IMG/VR virus record: IMGVR_UViG_3300042305_001483 | Source: a virus | Strand: one strand, 5' to 3' | DNA length: 64,000 bases | In this document: positions 5,412-60,404 of the stretch, one piece after another | Position numbering within the stretch: the stretch's first letter is position 1 | How the letters are laid out: each line of letters opens with the position of its first letter | The notes under the pieces: generated by a model | Databases searched by the model: none | Seen by the model: only the letters and a program-made list of their open reading frames with translations | Told to the model about the DNA's origin: nothing | Translations under genes and position numbers: made by a program

Positions 5412-5996
5412 ATGTTAGTACCAATGGTAATTGAAAAAACAGGACAAGGTGAAAGAGCATTTGATATCTACAGTAGATTACTCAATGAAAGAATCGTTTT
5501 CCTAAATGGTCCAGTAGACGATGTCAGTGCAAATCTTGTAGTAGCACAGATATTGCACTTAGAAAGCCAGGACAGCGAAAAGGATATTAATTTTTATATT
5601 AACAGTCCAGGTGGAGTAATCACAGCAGGAATGGCCATTTACGACGTAATGCAATTTGTTAAACCCGATGTTTCTACTTATGTTATGGGGCAGGCTTGTA
5701 GCATGGGAAGTTTTTTAGCGCAGGCAGGCACTCCGGGAAAAAGATATATGTTGCCTAATTCCAGACATATGATTCATCAACCCAGCGGAGGTGCAAGAGG
5801 CATGGCGTCGGACATTGAAATTAGTTACAAAGAAATCATGTTTTGGAAAACTAGATTAACTATGCTGTATGTAAAGCATAATTCTGCTGGAAAAACTTAT
5901 AATGATTTTGAAAGAGATATGGACCGAGATACCTTTATGAGCGCAGAAGAATCGTTAAAGTATGGCTTGTGTGATCATATAGTTCAACATAGATAA
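5412..5996 (+). CDS. clpP: ATP-dependent Clp protease proteolytic subunit
   Basis: DIYSRLL.ERI, YINSPGG, GQACSMG (catalytic Ser), MIHQPSGG (His), MDRDTFM (Asp). Confidence 0.97.
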
Positions 5997-6057: not shown

Positions 6058-6369
6058 ATGGCAAACAAATTACAACAATATAGAAGCAAAATTAAAAAAA
6101 TTAATGAAAATCAAATTTTATGGCTCAGACTTAGTGGGTTCGTAGTTATTTCTATTTTCATAGTTCTATTAGGATGGAATTTTTTAACAGATAACACTTT
6201 TATATACATAATCATTTTTTCTGGTTTAATTTTATCATGTTTCTGGTGGTATTTAACTATTAAATTAATAAAAGATTTATTAAACCACAGGAACACCGAA
6301 GTAGAAATTTTGAATGAAATAATTCAAGAACTTAAAGTTATCAAAGAAGATGTTAAAAAAATATCCTAA
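6058..6369 (+). CDS. 2-TM membrane protein
   Basis: Two hydrophobic helices. Confidence 0.75.
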   Translation: MANKLQQYRSKIKKINENQILWLRLSGFVVISIFIVLLGWNFLTDNTFIYIIIFSGLILSCFWWYLTIKLIKDLLNHRNTEVEILNEIIQELKVIKEDVKKIS

Positions 6370-6373
6370 CCTA

Positions 6374-6402
6374 TTGACAAGTTAAATAATAACTTATAAC
6401 AT
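6374..6402 (+). promoter_or_regulatory. sigma70-type promoter for queD
   Basis: TTGACA-17-TAACAT. Confidence 0.7.
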
Positions 6403-6409
6403 AATACAT

Positions 6410-6452
6410 AGAGGACTTGACGCTCGACCCTCTTTAAATATTCCGCCCGTCA
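6410..6452 (+). ncRNA. candidate preQ1-I-like riboswitch aptamer (H-type pseudoknot) in queD leader
   Basis: P1 AGAGG/CCTCT, P2 TGACG/CGTCA, AC immediately 5' of the P1 3' strand, TTAAATA after P1; upstream of a preQ0-pathway gene. Confidence 0.55.
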
Positions 6453-6486
6453 TCAAACTTGCTACCTAACATAAAGGAGACTAGAG

Positions 6487-6996
6487 ATGGCAAATCAACC
6501 TATTACCTATAAATGGACCAGCACTAAAGAATACCACGATTCTTTTCCCTGTGCATACAGACAATGGCGAGCCGATAGTCATTGTAATCTAATTCACGGC
6601 TACAGTTTTAGCATGAAGTTCTACTTTGGAACTAATGACCTCGATGTTCGAAACTGGGCTGCGGACTATGGCGGTCTTAAAGAACTCAAAAAAGTTTTAG
6701 AAGATCAATTCGATCACACGTTACTAGTTGCTCAAGACGATCCCCAACTTGAAACATTCAAACTACTCCAAGAAAAGAAAATGGCTAAACTTACTATCCT
6801 TCCAAGATTAGGTTGTGAAGGTCTAGCAGATATGTTATACAAGTATGTTAATGGAGTATATATTCCTCAACTATGGGGAGATGGGGAATCAAAACGTCTA
6901 TGGTGTTATAGAGTCGAAGTTCGTGAAACACAAAGCAACATGGCTTTTAGAGAAGGCCATCGTGAATGGAACGAAGATTTATTTGAAGAATTTTAA
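6487..6996 (+). CDS. queD: 6-carboxy-5,6,7,8-tetrahydropterin synthase (QueD/PTPS family)
   Basis: HC.LIHGYS, FDHT, CE.LA, VRET motifs; AAGGAG SD. Confidence 0.9.
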   Translation: MANQPITYKWTSTKEYHDSFPCAYRQWRADSHCNLIHGYSFSMKFYFGTNDLDVRNWAADYGGLKELKKVLEDQFDHTLLVAQDDPQLETFKLLQEKKMAKLTILPRLGCEGLADMLYKYVNGVYIPQLWGDGESKRLWCYRVEVRETQSNMAFREGHREWNEDLFEEF

Positions 6997-6998
6997 AA

Positions 6999-7682
6999 AT
7001 GCTGTCAACTCAAATTATCATGGTCGGTACAACTAGTATACCGGCATTGGATAATTCAATAATTGATCAATTATTAGATTGGCACGATTCTAAAAAAACA
7101 ATTTTAGAAAATCCAGGGAGTATTGGTTTGAATACTCCCTGGGTGCATACAAAAATAAGAGATTCCGATCCGATGGAAAAATCAATACAAATAAAAAATT
7201 CAATCAGCGGATCTCCTTGGAATTTAGATTTTGTAGAAAATTTTCCAACTTTAGTAGAAAGTTTTAATCAATTACCACTAAATTTCATTAACAAAATTCT
7301 TATATTAGAAACTGTAAAAGAATGTGTTCCTCATATAGATGGAAGTAGTAGGACTTACTTAGATAAAAGTATCGAACCTTGTAATTATAGAATGCTTTTG
7401 AGAAAACCTAAAAACAGTAAGGGTTTTTATGTTCAACCATTATTAAAAGAAAATTTTGGAATTAGTGCAAGAAAAGAAATTGATACACCTTATTCTAAAA
7501 ATTATTACTCTCCAGAAATAGGAAAATGGTGGGTACTGAACAATTGGTGTTGCCAGCATGGCAGCGATTGGTTACCGGAAGATAATAAAGCGTTAATATC
7601 AGTGATAGGTACTCCATCTAATGAACACAAACAAATATTAAATTCATTATCAAACACAATTAAACACCCCGATTATACCTAA
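6999..7682 (+). CDS. hypothetical protein, possibly 2OG-Fe(II) oxygenase-like
   Basis: PHID…QHG, HxD…H spacing. Confidence 0.45.
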   Translation: MLSTQIIMVGTTSIPALDNSIIDQLLDWHDSKKTILENPGSIGLNTPWVHTKIRDSDPMEKSIQIKNSISGSPWNLDFVENFPTLVESFNQLPLNFINKILILETVKECVPHIDGSSRTYLDKSIEPCNYRMLLRKPKNSKGFYVQPLLKENFGISARKEIDTPYSKNYYSPEIGKWWVLNNWCCQHGSDWLPEDNKALISVIGTPSNEHKQILNSLSNTIKHPDYT

Positions 7683-8167: not shown

Positions 8168-8338
8168 ATGGAAAATCGTAGTTGGACCCTTACTGTAGAA
8201 GAAGATCCTAAAACTGGAGAATTAATTCTTCCTCTTCCCGCAGAATTACTTGCTATGCAAGGATGGTTCGAGGGCGACACCCTCGAATGGGAAGATAATA
8301 AAGACGGAAGTTGGACTCTTAAGAAAGTCGAAAAATGA
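8168..8338 (+). CDS. AbrB/MazE-like small DNA-binding protein (56 aa, not in ORF track)
   Basis: GELILPLPAELL…GW.EGDTLEW pattern; AAGGA SD; ATGA overlap with uvsE. Confidence 0.7.
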   Translation: MENRSWTLTVEEDPKTGELILPLPAELLAMQGWFEGDTLEWEDNKDGSWTLKKVEK

Positions 8339-9363
8339 CTAAACGCATTGGCTTTGCCTGCAAGTGGATTGACAATCCTGATCAAGTCAACGGTATTAAA
8401 CCCAAAGATGCTTGTAAAAAGTACAATACAGGCAGTACCACCGTTGCTTGGTTAAATAGACAAAGCAAAGATAAGGCCGTAGAAAAACTATGGGACCTTA
8501 TGAAGGGTAATATTGAATCTGCCCGTTTGCTAGTTGAACGAGTGGGCAATTTAAATGAAATTTTGCGAATGGTACGACTATCTAGCGACATCCTTCCTGT
8601 GTATACTGAGCCAAGCTGGTCTTGGTTTTACAGATCAACCGATGTCAGAGATTACGCAGAAAGACATTTTAAACGAATTGGAGATTCGGCCCGTGCGAAT
8701 AATGTTCGCCTTAGTTTTCATCCCGGTCAATTTTGCGTTTTGGCATCTGATAACCCAGATATTGTAAATAGATCAATAGAGGAGTTTGAATATCATGTGG
8801 ATATGGCCCGCTGGATGGGATACGGTAACGTATTTCAAGATTTTAAAATCAACGTACACATCGCGGGTCGAGTCGGTCCAGCCGGTATCCGAGCAGCACT
8901 TAAGAGACTCAGTCCAGAAGCAAAAAACACCATTACCATCGAAAATGACGAAATATCTTGGGGAATCGACTCAAGTCTCGAACTCGTCAACGATCTCGCT
9001 TTGGTGCTAGACATACACCATCATTGGATACACACAGGAGAATATATTGAAACTACTGACGATCGTATTAAAAGGATTATTGACAGTTGGCGTGGTGTGC
9101 GCCCTGTTATACACTATTCCGTTTCTAGGGAAGATGTACTTACAGGCCATCCCGGATTACAACGCCCCTCTCTTCCGACCCTCTTAGAATCTGGTTATAA
9201 GAAGTCTAAACTAAGAGCGCACAGTGATTTTTATTGGAATGATTCAGTCAATGAGTGGGCTTTGACTCACAGTCAATGGGCCGACATTATGTGCGAATCA
9301 AAGGGAAAAAATCTAGCCAGTGTTAATCTGGCTAGTATGGGAAAACAATTAGGACTTCTTTGA
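8335..9363 (+). CDS. uvsE: UV-damage endonuclease (UVDE)
   Basis: RIGFAC, RLSSD, RLSFHPGQF, IENDE, LDIHHH, HYS, AHSD, MCESK. Confidence 0.95.
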   Translation: MTKRIGFACKWIDNPDQVNGIKPKDACKKYNTGSTTVAWLNRQSKDKAVEKLWDLMKGNIESARLLVERVGNLNEILRMVRLSSDILPVYTEPSWSWFYRSTDVRDYAERHFKRIGDSARANNVRLSFHPGQFCVLASDNPDIVNRSIEEFEYHVDMARWMGYGNVFQDFKINVHIAGRVGPAGIRAALKRLSPEAKNTITIENDEISWGIDSSLELVNDLALVLDIHHHWIHTGEYIETTDDRIKRIIDSWRGVRPVIHYSVSREDVLTGHPGLQRPSLPTLLESGYKKSKLRAHSDFYWNDSVNEWALTHSQWADIMCESKGKNLASVNLASMGKQLGLL

Positions 9364-56714: not shown

Positions 56715-57184
56715 AATGGTTACTAAATATTCTTGAAAAGAATAATCGAAAAAGAATTGTATTGGATAGACAATCAAATGAACCATATCTCGAACGCTAT
56801 TATCTATTTCTCCGCGACAGAAAATGGTTTCCTTTCAATGTGTTCTTGCACAAGTTTCTTAAGTCAGACCCCGATGATGTGCATGATCATCCATGGCCTT
56901 ACGCTACTTTAATTCTCAAGGGTGGTTACTACGAATGGGTTCCACAATTTAATTCTACTGGAAAAAAGATTGGCGAAATACGTCATTGGAGGGGACCCGG
57001 TCATTTTCGTGTATGCCGGTCTACTTCGTATCATCGCATCGAACTTGCCGAAGGAGTAGAATGCTGGACAATGTTTATGCCAGGACCTCAACGTCGCGAA
57101 TGGGGGTTCTTAATTCCAGGACAAGAACATGATCGTTGGGTACACAACAACGTATACTTAAAACATAAATCAAAAAATGGATAA
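56711..57184 (+). CDS. cupin-fold protein
   Basis: HDHPW…GGYYE…HRI…WT. Confidence 0.7.
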   Translation: MKWLLNILEKNNRKRIVLDRQSNEPYLERYYLFLRDRKWFPFNVFLHKFLKSDPDDVHDHPWPYATLILKGGYYEWVPQFNSTGKKIGEIRHWRGPGHFRVCRSTSYHRIELAEGVECWTMFMPGPQRREWGFLIPGQEHDRWVHNNVYLKHKSKNG

Positions 57185-57551
57185 AAATAAAGAATTAGAA
57201 ACTGCCGATGTCCCTTGGACAAATCCCATTAACGAAGATTATCATGTCACTGTTTACCGAGATGGATATCCTGTTTCTCTCGGACACCTGTTGTTCGTTC
57301 CCAATTACAACACTCCAGAAGTTATTCAAGATGCATTTTACGATGCATATAAGGCAGGACTAGAATTAGTAAAGTCTGGAAAGGCAGATGGGTTTAACAT
57401 TGGGTTTAATTTTGGTAGTGCCGCAGGACAAACTGTAATGTATCCTCATGTGCATTTAATTCCTAGATACGAAGGTGATGTTGAAGATCCCGTTGGAGGA
57501 GTAAGAAACGTTATTCCAGGAAAAGGTAATTATAGAAAGTGGCCTAAATGA
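57177..57551 (+). CDS. HIT-family nucleotide hydrolase
   Basis: [20 protein letters not shown]. Confidence 0.92.
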
Positions 57552-58654
57552 GAATCGAAGACGAAATTAAGTTAGATTTTAAAGACGTATTAATTCGCCC
57601 AAAGCGTAGTACACTTAGTAGTCGCAAAGAAGTTGATTTAAATCGCACTTACAAATTTAAACATAGCGGGTGGGAATGGACTGGTGTTCCAATCATGGCT
57701 GCTAACATGGACGGAGTGGGTACTTTTAATATGGCGGAAGCATTGCAAGAACATAAAATGTTTACTTGTCTTGTTAAAAGTTATCTACTGAATGATTTTA
57801 TTTACATGCAAGAACTTATCAATGGTAAGCATTTTGCCGTTAGTACAGGCACCAGTGACAAAGATTGGACCAAATTACAGCAAATTCTAAATACGTATCC
57901 AGAATTACATTTTATATGTATCGATGTAGCAAACGGTTATAGTGAACACTTTGGAGACTTTGTTGCTAAGGTCCGTGCTAGATATCCTACACATACTATT
58001 ATTGCAGGTAATGTAGTTACTGCTGACATGACACAGGAGTTAATTTTACGTGGAGCAGATATTATTAAAGTTGGTATTGGGCCTGGTAGTGTTTGCACTA
58101 CTCGTATTCAGACAGGTGTTGGCTATCCGCAATTATCCGCTATTATTGAATGTGCCGATGCCGCTCATGGTCTTGGTGGACACATCATTGCTGACGGCGG
58201 CTGTACTTGTCCTGGAGATGTAGTCAAAGCATTTGGGGCCGGTGCTGACTTTGTAATGCTAGGCGGTATGCTAGCCGGTCATGATGAAGGTGGTGGGGAA
58301 GTAATTACAAATTATTTTAAAACCAATGAAGTCCTAACCAAAGAATTTGATAAAAATGGTGATTTGCTAATTCATAACTATAAAGTTGAAGTAAAAAAAT
58401 TTGTTGAATTTTATGGCATGAGTAGTGATACTGCAATGGATAAACACCACGGCGGAGTAGCAAGTTATCGTAGTAGTGAGGGTCGCACAGTTACAATTCC
58501 ATATCGAGGAAAAGTGAACGATACTGTATTAGATTTATTAGGCGGGTTAAGAAGTGCTTGTACTTATGTAGGTGCACCTACATTAAAACAACTTAGTAAG
58601 TGTACCACATTTGTGAGAGTAAGCAGACAAATAAACGATGTGTTTGTTAAATAA
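57548..58654 (+). CDS. guaC: GMP reductase
   Basis: [39 protein letters not shown]. Confidence 0.95.
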
Positions 58655-59498
58655 TTTTTGTTATTTTTTGATCGTAAATTGACGTACAGGCTTGCATTTT
58701 ACATGGTTCGGGTTCTTTTAACAAATCAAAATTTTTAAAAATATTTCCATGATTGGTATTATTGCAATCTGAACCAGAAATGTAACCTTCTGCCGATATT
58801 TTTAATTTTTCAATTCCGGCAAAACATTTTTTTCCTGTAAATGAGGGACTGGTCTCTAGTATTTCAACCCATTTTTGTTTAAAAGTTTCTTCTTGTTTTC
58901 CTCGATTTTTATCAACCCATTCTTTTCCAAATAATTTTTCTAACTGATTTTCTGTATACGGCAACAATCCTAACATATATTCGGCACTTTTATATAAAGC
59001 AGTTTTTTCTACATGCATATTATGCATTTCTTGTACTAACTCGGCCCTGTTCCAATCTTCATCGAAATAGTCAGGTCTAATTGGAACCATCATTTTAAAA
59101 GTTGTACTCTTAGATTTAAAAGTTTGAATTATATAATTAATAAGATTAGGATTTTGCCAATAATGATAAGTTAAAATCAAATTATCTAAATTAGGTTCAA
59201 TAGCAAACCAGTCTAACCAAAGTTTTCCACCGTTGGTACTTAATGTTGTTGTTCCACCATTTTCTTTACACAGTTTTAACAACATTGGAAATTCAAAAAA
59301 TTCTAACGGTTCTCCTCCATCAAATTTCCAATTAATTATTCTCCCCATACTATTAAAATGCTCTATCATTTTTTTAGCAACTGACATGTATTCATCAAAA
59401 TGCCTAATACCGCCTCCCCAAAATTTTGAAGGACAGTATGAACATCCGCCTGTGCAATAATTATGAATGGTCCAAGAAATTTCAGTTTTATTATTCAT
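58647..59498 (-). CDS. radical SAM protein with C-terminal Cys (twitch/SPASM-like) region
   Basis: [15 protein letters not shown]; C-terminal C…C…C…C. Confidence 0.85.
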
Positions 59499-59503
59499 TG
59501 CTC

Positions 59504-59532
59504 TTGATTTTTCTAAATATTAGTAATATACT
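59504..59532 (+). promoter_or_regulatory. sigma70-type promoter for queE
   Basis: TTGATT-17-TATACT. Confidence 0.6.
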
Positions 59533-59555
59533 TACTTATTATTCAAGGAATAAAA

Positions 59556-60404
59556 ATGGCAAAAATTAAAGTTAGTGAACTATTTTATTCTATCCAGGGA
59601 GAAGGAAGATATATGGGCGTGCCTAGTGTGTTCTTAAGAACATTTGGGTGCAACTTTACCTGTGATGGATTTGGAATGCCTAAAGGAGAAAAATCAAATG
59701 AACGACACAATGTGGCAAGTCGTATTTCAGAGTTTAAACAGTATAGAGATTTACCTCTTGTTCATACCGGTTGTGATTCTTATGCTAGTTGGGATCCTAG
59801 GTTCAAAGACCTTTCACCTATGGTTGAAACGGATGGCCTTGCGGAGGATATCGTCAACCTCTTACCATACAAAAGATGGACGAGGGAACATTTAGTCATT
59901 ACTGGAGGCGAACCTCTTTTGGGATGGCAACGTGCTTATCCAGAGTTACTAGAACATCCAAAGATGCAGAGTCTTAAAGAAATTACATTCGAGACGAACG
60001 GTACTCAAAGATTAGACGAAAAATTTAAAAAATATCTAAAAGAATGGCAAACTGCTAACCGTGATCGAGAAATTACTTTTAGTGTCAGTGCAAAACTTCC
60101 TGCAAGCGGTGAACTGTGGGAAGATGCAATTAAACCAGATATTGTATATGATTATTCCACAGTCGGTTATACGTATCTTAAATTTGTCGTAGCCACAGAA
60201 GATGACATTAAAGATGCGTTAATGGCAATGGGAAAATTTAGAGACGAAGGTTTCCTTGGTGAAGTATATCTTATGCCTGTTGGAGGCGTCGAAAGTGTTT
60301 ATAATTTAAATAATAAAAACGTAGCACTGGCATGTATGAAACACGGTCTTAGGTACAGTGATAGATTACAAGTACCGCTTTTTAAGAACGAGTGGGGAAC
60401 TTAA
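59556..60404 (+). CDS. queE: 7-carboxy-7-deazaguanine synthase (radical SAM)
   Basis: ELFYSIQGEG, VFLR..GCN..C…CDS, TGGEP, ETNGT, LKFVV. Confidence 0.9.
   Translation: MAKIKVSELFYSIQGEGRYMGVPSVFLRTFGCNFTCDGFGMPKGEKSNERHNVASRISEFKQYRDLPLVHTGCDSYASWDPRFKDLSPMVETDGLAEDIVNLLPYKRWTREHLVITGGEPLLGWQRAYPELLEHPKMQSLKEITFETNGTQRLDEKFKKYLKEWQTANRDREITFSVSAKLPASGELWEDAIKPDIVYDYSTVGYTYLKFVVATEDDIKDALMAMGKFRDEGFLGEVYLMPVGGVESVYNLNNKNVALACMKHGLRYSDRLQVPLFKNEWGT

Follow-up and report, generated by a model that had tools for sequence, protein, structure and literature searches.

A covarying pseudoknot in the leader of a QueD-like gene of uncultured jumbo phages is a candidate translational ON switch

Results

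The QueD-like gene and its leader

The DNA analysed here, referred to as the window, is a 64-kb stretch (64,000 nucleotides) of a 125.5-kb phage record in IMG/VR (IMGVR_UViG_3300042305_001483) for which CheckV gives a completeness of 35%. The source is a lake jumbo phage, and its motif-bearing relatives are jumbo phages of 300-383 kb. The window carries a gene for a QueD/PTPS-like protein, and the leader of this gene contains a compact RNA element of about 45 nt (Table 1) that recurs 5' of a QueD/PTPS-like gene in more than 230 uncultured phage contigs. The first-pass annotation had read this leader as a promoter followed by a preQ1-I-like pseudoknot. The letters it cited are all in place, i.e., TTGACA (6374-79), AGAGG (6410-14), TGACG (6418-22), CCTCT (6429-33), CGTCA (6448-52), TAAAGG (6472-77) and the start codon ATG (6487-89). 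Genes for a ClpP protease (5412-5996, PF00574, 8e-76) and a UvdE UV endonuclease (8335-9363, PF03851, 9e-38) lie nearby, and their position relative to the QueD-like gene varies among relatives. The 227-aa open reading frame directly after the QueD-like gene (6999-7682) matched nothing in Pfam, NCBIfam or PHROG and has no counterpart among 199 related loci.

Table 1 Features of the QueD-like gene, its leader and the distant QueE-like gene in the window.
Feature	Position	Strand	Basis or remarks
Sigma70-like promoter, TTGACA-N17-TAACAT	6374..6402	+	10/12 matches; predicted transcript start ~6408-6410
P1 5' strand, AGAGG	6410..6414	+	partner 6429-6433; fully paired in all 52 sequences
L1, ACU	6415..6417	+	family consensus NCU; C6416 invariant
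P2 5' strand	6418..6426	+	variable UGACG 6418-22, unpaired C6423 and U6424, conserved C6425 and G6426
L2, AC	6427..6428	+	family consensus YC; C6428 invariant, at the P1/P2 junction
P1 3' strand, CCUCU	6429..6433	+	pairs with 6410-14
L3, UUAAAUAUUC	6434..6443	+	W/A-rich, then AYUC
P2 3' strand	6444..6452	+	conserved C6444 and G6445, unpaired C6446 and C6447, variable CGUCA 6448-52
Start-codon-sequestering helix, 5' arm GUCAUC	6449..6454	+	MFE folds, family statistics; overlaps the P2 3' strand by 4 nt
Shine-Dalgarno sequence GGAG	6476..6479	+	read from sequence
Sequestering helix, 3' arm GAUGGC	6486..6491	+	MFE folds, family statistics; includes the start codon 6487-6489
QueD/PTPS-like gene, 169 aa, the regulated gene	6487..6996	+	Pfam PF01242, 7e-16; phrog_2389, 4e-37
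QueE-like radical SAM gene	59556..60404	+	phrog_2076, 6e-51; best NCBIfam matches all QueE models, below cut-offs

A search with the downstream protein yielded more than 588 viral contigs and an exact RNA pattern search at least 120 additional stretches; pooled, these searches gave 187 motif copies, 144 of them distinct. Covariation of P1 was assessed on an alignment of 52 relatives, P2 pairing was counted in the 144 distinct copies, and folds of the putative expression platform were computed for 142 distinct copies. Note that the carriers are all uncultured phages of a single related group, and copy counts therefore do not represent independent events.

Across the family the element has a constant order: a 5-bp P1 is followed by L1, a P2 5' strand of 4-7 nt, the sequence UCAYC and the P1 3' strand, after which a 13-nt stretch ending in AYUCUGC leads into the P2 3' strand. 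L1 of relatives has 0-7 additional variable nucleotides after NCU. In the window, P2 consists of five variable pairs, an internal mismatch and then the pairs C6425-G6445 and G6426-C6444. Six unpaired bases are invariant family-wide, two of them outside L3 (C6416 and C6428, the latter in 52 of 52 sequences) and four within it (A6436, A6440, U6442 and C6443). The window copy is the most deviant of the family. It alone has A at position 6427, where 142 of 144 copies have a pyrimidine, and a second mismatch (C6423.C6447) turns the interruption of its P2 into a 2x2 internal loop. With 46 bits, it also ranks last among the six genomes searched with the model (48-68 bits for the others). The 'AC' that had been highlighted just ahead of the P1 3' strand is therefore half a family feature: C6428 is invariant, while A6427 is peculiar to this copy.

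The promoter proposed for the leader, with a transcript start at P1, agrees with what is found in relatives. Sigma70-like sites as such are not above chance in the region (15 found, 16.9 expected), and a strong match (at least 10/12) precedes the motif in 22 of 189 distinct upstream regions. In all 22 of these copies, the -10 element ends 5-12 nt ahead of P1 (7 nt in the window), and this spacing fits an RNA that begins at P1. Most other copies closely follow a stop codon and are probably transcribed by read-through from the upstream gene.

Conservation and covariation of the pseudoknot

The first-pass annotation had proposed an H-type pseudoknot at the 5' end of the QueD/PTPS-like mRNA and a covariation check on the leaders of relatives. 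Compensatory changes are present in both helices. P1 occurs as AGAGG/CCTCT, AGCGG/CCGCT, AGTGG/CCACT, ACCGG/CCGGT and TGCGG/CCGCA, with changes on both sides at three of the five pairs and complete pairing in all 52 sequences. Scored on gap-free pairs only, P1 gave a covariation value of 0.322 compared with 0.066 in shuffled alignments, none of 500 shuffles reaching the observed value, and control helices slid along the alignment were only 31-60% paired. As MAFFT misregisters P2 helices of 4 bp with respect to those of 5 bp, the variable part of this helix was counted with an anchored script in which the flanking conserved blocks alone set the register, without fitting. Three or more consecutive P2 pairs were present in 106 of 144 distinct copies, as opposed to 43 of 144 when partners were shuffled. 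The first P2 position is occupied by UA (62 copies), AU (36), GC (16) or CG (10), and the third by CG (68) or GC (52).

Beyond the variable part, perfect A-U/G-C covariation links position 3 of UCAYC to the position third from the end of AYUCUGC. IMG/VR-wide scans in which P1 was set to AGCGG recovered at least 120 copies with A and U and 49 with G and C at these positions, and none with G and U or with A and C. The window carries the G-C form (G6426-C6444). In a phylogeny of the downstream gene (226 rows), the state of this pair switches at least 18 times, and the G-C form is seen together with three different P1 versions, so that it does not stem from a single inherited event. The covariation between what would otherwise be L2 and L3 means that P2 does not stop at a U.C mismatch but is extended by two conserved pairs, C-G and A-U/G-C, which leaves only YC for L2 and 10 nt for L3. 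The leader thus has one general hallmark of riboswitches, a structured and conserved 5'-leader aptamer domain with covariation and with conserved unpaired bases.

A competing helix at the translation start

The minimum free energy fold of nucleotides 6408-6495 contains P1 together with a helix between 6449-54 and 6486-91, which covers the AUG. When the sequence from the end of L3 to twelve nucleotides past the AUG was folded for each copy, the P2 3' strand paired with the start codon (60 copies) or the Shine-Dalgarno sequence (76 copies), i.e., in 136 of 142 folds, as compared with 54 of 142 for shuffled sequences. Uninterrupted pairing of at least six nucleotides between this strand and the start region is possible in 120 of 142 copies and in 14 of 142 shuffles. 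The family has arrived at four sequence solutions for sequestration, GUCAUC/GAUGGC (window), GCCAUUG/CAAUGGC, CCUAUG/CAUAGG and AUGUCU/AGACAU. The calculated duplex energies average -5.8 kcal/mol for P2 and -8.5 kcal/mol for the sequestering helix; the window copy has -6.8 and -8.5 kcal/mol, respectively. Accordingly, a second hallmark of riboswitches, an expression platform mutually exclusive with the aptamer, is also recognizable. This platform is not the one suggested originally: the pairing of TCTTTA with TAAAGG gives run lengths hardly different from those of shuffles and is not kept across the family.

On the basis of these data, it is nearly certain that the conserved pseudoknot and its built-in competing helix are real. 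The P2 3' strand corresponds to an anti-AUG or anti-SD sequence and not to the Shine-Dalgarno sequence itself. Being complementary to AUG or SD, it should leave the start site free when it is engaged in the pseudoknot. Judged by base pairing, translation would be off by default and switched on once the pseudoknot is stabilized, provided that the pseudoknot is the bound state.

Distribution of the motif

A single strong model match per genome was found in each of six genomes (46-68 bits), the remainder being noise, and second copies within the same genome were absent from all six. Of 186 copies, 181 lie directly 5' of a QueD-like gene. Among the five exceptions, four have one extra gene between motif and QueD-like gene and one runs off its contig. 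The inserted genes, located in L118, L123, L128 and L157, encode a cupin, a DUF1698-type methyltransferase-like protein, a 243-aa protein and a 293-aa open reading frame, and in these loci the motif consequently heads a small operon.

In a pattern scan of 185,579 species genomes (one per species), eight matches were obtained, one of which is a true copy; the other seven fall within GC-rich coding sequence and are due to chance. The true copy resides on a contig of 8 kb (CAZXGO010000106.1, L206) that was assigned to a Chitinophagales MAG, and comes with a QueD-like gene. The contig is probably of phage origin and provides no more than a weak hint to the host. The strong Shine-Dalgarno sequences and TTGACA/TATAAT promoters of these phages suit a Bacteroidota host poorly.

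No carrier was found among cultured phages: megablast of the region against cultured phages gave no match, and the motif model detected nothing in the homologous loci of ACP17, R5C, BUDD and Me-ZS1 (best score 6 bits), where the QueD-like genes abut the upstream gene and have no leader. A literature search turned up no published description of the motif.

The regulated protein and its pathway

The first-pass annotation had named the downstream gene queD and placed it in the preQ0 pathway. Membership in the PTPS fold family is clear (58.7 bits for PF01242 with a cut-off of 22.4) and the company of FolE and QueE-like genes is in line with such a pathway, but the protein stays well below the QueD equivalog cut-off (TIGR03367, 34.3 bits versus 89.25). 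The CxxxHGH motif of QueD is replaced by C-NLI-HGY, which is invariant across the phage family. More generally, proteins of the phrog_2389 family have tyrosine in place of two QueD histidines (AYRQW for AH...; C-x3-HGY for C-x3-HGH). The same substitutions are found in phages with full que clusters, including the homologues of Me-ZS1 and R5C, which are themselves located in que clusters. Provided that the replaced histidines bind the metal, as is known for QueD, the catalytic site of the phage proteins may differ from that of the canonical enzyme. The regulated proteins are 33-100% identical to that of the window and fall into at least two subfamilies; the RNA is thus better conserved than the gene it precedes.

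Six genomes, the window record and five near-complete relatives, were examined for further pathway genes. FolE and a QueE-like gene are present in all six. The QueE-like gene is 53 kb away from the QueD-like gene here and 1-3 kb downstream in many relatives. At 135 related loci FolE is encoded upstream in the same orientation, and at 107 the QueE-like gene follows downstream. QueC was represented in the six genomes by weak PP-loop fragments only, and the Pfam TGT family was detected in none of them, with all controls positive. The phrog_887 family, employed as a probe for DpdA, matched nothing even in control genomes, and a very divergent DpdA may exist in these phages. As neither QueC nor TGT/DpdA was detected, the DNA-modification pathway originally assumed for this phage is left unsupported. 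The viral pathway seems to run as far as 7-carboxy-7-deazaguanine (CDG).

Our analyses also drew attention to other proteins encoded near the QueD- and QueE-like genes. A 271-aa protein (e.g., L118:4294-5106, minus strand) occurs in about 80 related loci, directly after the QueD-like gene in about 50 and ahead of the QueE-like gene in many, and is absent from the window record. It has no Pfam match, and a profile search against PDB sequences yielded nothing. Its AlphaFold model (pLDDT 91) is matched by Foldseek to TarP and TarS at 1e-8; the closest structures (TarP, TarS and RmlT) share about 12% identity with it, and the protein thus models as a GT-A glycosyltransferase fold. Close to the QueE-like gene of the window are genes for a HIT-domain protein (57177-57551), a GMP reductase above the equivalog cut-off (57548-58654) and a second radical SAM protein with a weak viperin-like match (58647-59498, minus strand). 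This gene group (57177-60404) may be a sign of chemistry on 7-deazapurine nucleotides that goes beyond CDG.

Comparison with known riboswitches

The element shares several properties with preQ1-I riboswitches. Both are small H-type pseudoknots with a 5-bp P1 whose hairpin loop pairs with the 3' tail; both have a conserved C at the P1/P2 junction, here the invariant C that adjoins the P1 3' strand, and an A/U-rich beginning of L3. Both reside upstream of genes of 7-deazaguanine-pathway type (for preQ1-I, e.g., B. subtilis queC and T. tengcongensis), and P1 of the B. subtilis RNA is the same AGAGG/CCUCU as in the window copy. In this respect the topology originally described has stood up. By analogy with preQ1-I, C6428 is the candidate ligand-pairing base.

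Membership in preQ1-I has not. No Rfam 15 family matched the window at gathering score. The covariance-model search that had been suggested, with RF00522, RF01054 and RF02680, gave no match at E<=10 for positions 6300-6560 (261 nt), nor did any preQ1 family match a copy closer to the consensus (L015:2915-3010, 96 nt); what Rfam returned at E<=10 were chance matches to snoRNA and miRNA families. The differences are substantial. The conserved U that opens L1 of preQ1-I is a variable base in the phage motif (U 62, C 56 and A 26 among 144 distinct copies), and P2 is longer, with 7-9 layers including the two conserved pairs, and L2 measures 2 nt. PreQ1-I RNAs carry a highly conserved 12-nt tail rich in adenine (AUAAAAAACUAA in B. 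subtilis), and their minimal aptamer has 34 nt (PMC3273816), whereas the phage motif has the tail N6-AYUCUGC followed by a variable P2 strand in place of the A-tract, and an aptamer of 43-50 nt. Unlike preQ1-I, the motif is confined to phage contigs. Finally, the bound fold of preQ1-I engages the Shine-Dalgarno sequence or a terminator and turns expression off, while the structure of the phage motif, with an anti-AUG or anti-SD sequence as its P2 3' strand, predicts the opposite logic. A divergent preQ1-I member with preQ1 or preQ0 as its ligand and repression of queD as its output, as in bacteria, is therefore quite improbable, and the pseudoknot with its invariant junction C is better described as a riboswitch-like element distinct from preQ1-I.

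Among other classes, SAM-II/SAM-V, preQ1-II, guanidine-III and NAD+-II also form compact pseudoknots by the ribosome-binding site with conserved loop nucleotides; the phage motif has no Rfam match to any of them. As far as is known, these classes bury the Shine-Dalgarno sequence in the pseudoknot and switch expression off. The phage pseudoknot is predicted to do the opposite and to release the start site. A further parallel is the phage-borne glutamine riboswitch of marine myophages, likewise a metabolite-type RNA switch on a phage gene (PMC9004378). The glutamine riboswitches of phages, however, are copies of bacterial classes, and the motif described here had a single true copy in the 185,579 species genomes.

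Discussion

We consider it fairly probable that the element is an ON riboswitch for a small molecule and represents a class absent from current catalogues. The mRNA of the QueD-like gene would then carry, in its leader, a compact H-type pseudoknot that serves as a cis-acting switch of translation. By default, the P2 3' strand would pair with the start region and hide the AUG, the sequestering helix being the more stable of the two on its own, and stabilization of the pseudoknot would release the start codon. The likeliest stabilizer would be a small molecule accommodated at the P1/P2 junction. From the junction C and the FolE/QueD/QueE context we infer a ligand with a guanine-like face. Candidates are dihydroneopterin triphosphate as a pterin intermediate, CDG or preQ0 as 7-deazaguanines, or a guanine nucleotide. 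Ligand binding as such and the direction of regulation are likewise inferred. Note that ON switches are less common on biosynthetic genes than feedback repression, which counts against the ON reading.

A more specific proposal, which we put forward tentatively and with somewhat less than even confidence, is that of a phage-only riboswitch class that senses a pterin or 7-deazapurine intermediate, e.g., dihydroneopterin triphosphate or CDG, and feeds forward as an ON switch into a viral pathway, FolE-QueD-(GT-A glycosyltransferase)-QueE, that ends before preQ0 is reached.

Alternatively, the RNA could be an operator bound by a phage translational regulator or by the QueD-like protein itself, on the model of T4 gene 32 or the leader for ribosomal protein S15. 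The conserved loops and the competition between pseudoknot and start-site helix would fit protein binding no less than metabolite binding, and pseudoknots in phage mRNAs are known to bind proteins. Yet the element occurs once per genome and before one enzyme gene only, and no conserved candidate regulator adjoins the motif. Furthermore, the RNA is nearly unchanged ahead of QueD-like proteins that share just 33-40% identity, which argues against autoregulation by that protein. Overall, a protein operator appears unlikely. Least probable of all is a ligand-free folding device, stability element or RNA thermometer that sets the level of translation: the two states are only about 2-3 kcal/mol apart and could be shifted by temperature or Mg2+, but the invariant unpaired bases exceed what a thermometer needs and the tertiary-type pair covaries strictly as Watson-Crick pairs with not a single G-U.

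A small-molecule ON riboswitch would have consequences beyond the phages studied here. To our knowledge, the riboswitch classes present in phages are all borrowed from bacteria. If our reading is true, this would be a phage-confined class with preQ1-I-like architecture and reversed logic, implying that viruses evolve metabolite sensors of their own, and it would at the same time be a very small natural ON switch of about 45 nt. The A-U/G-C pair offers a ready test by compensatory mutation. The motif flags an unexplored viral pathway that comprises FolE, QueD-like and QueE-like proteins and often a GT-A glycosyltransferase, without a detected QueC or a recognizable DpdA. The identity of the ligand would help to reveal the product of this pathway.
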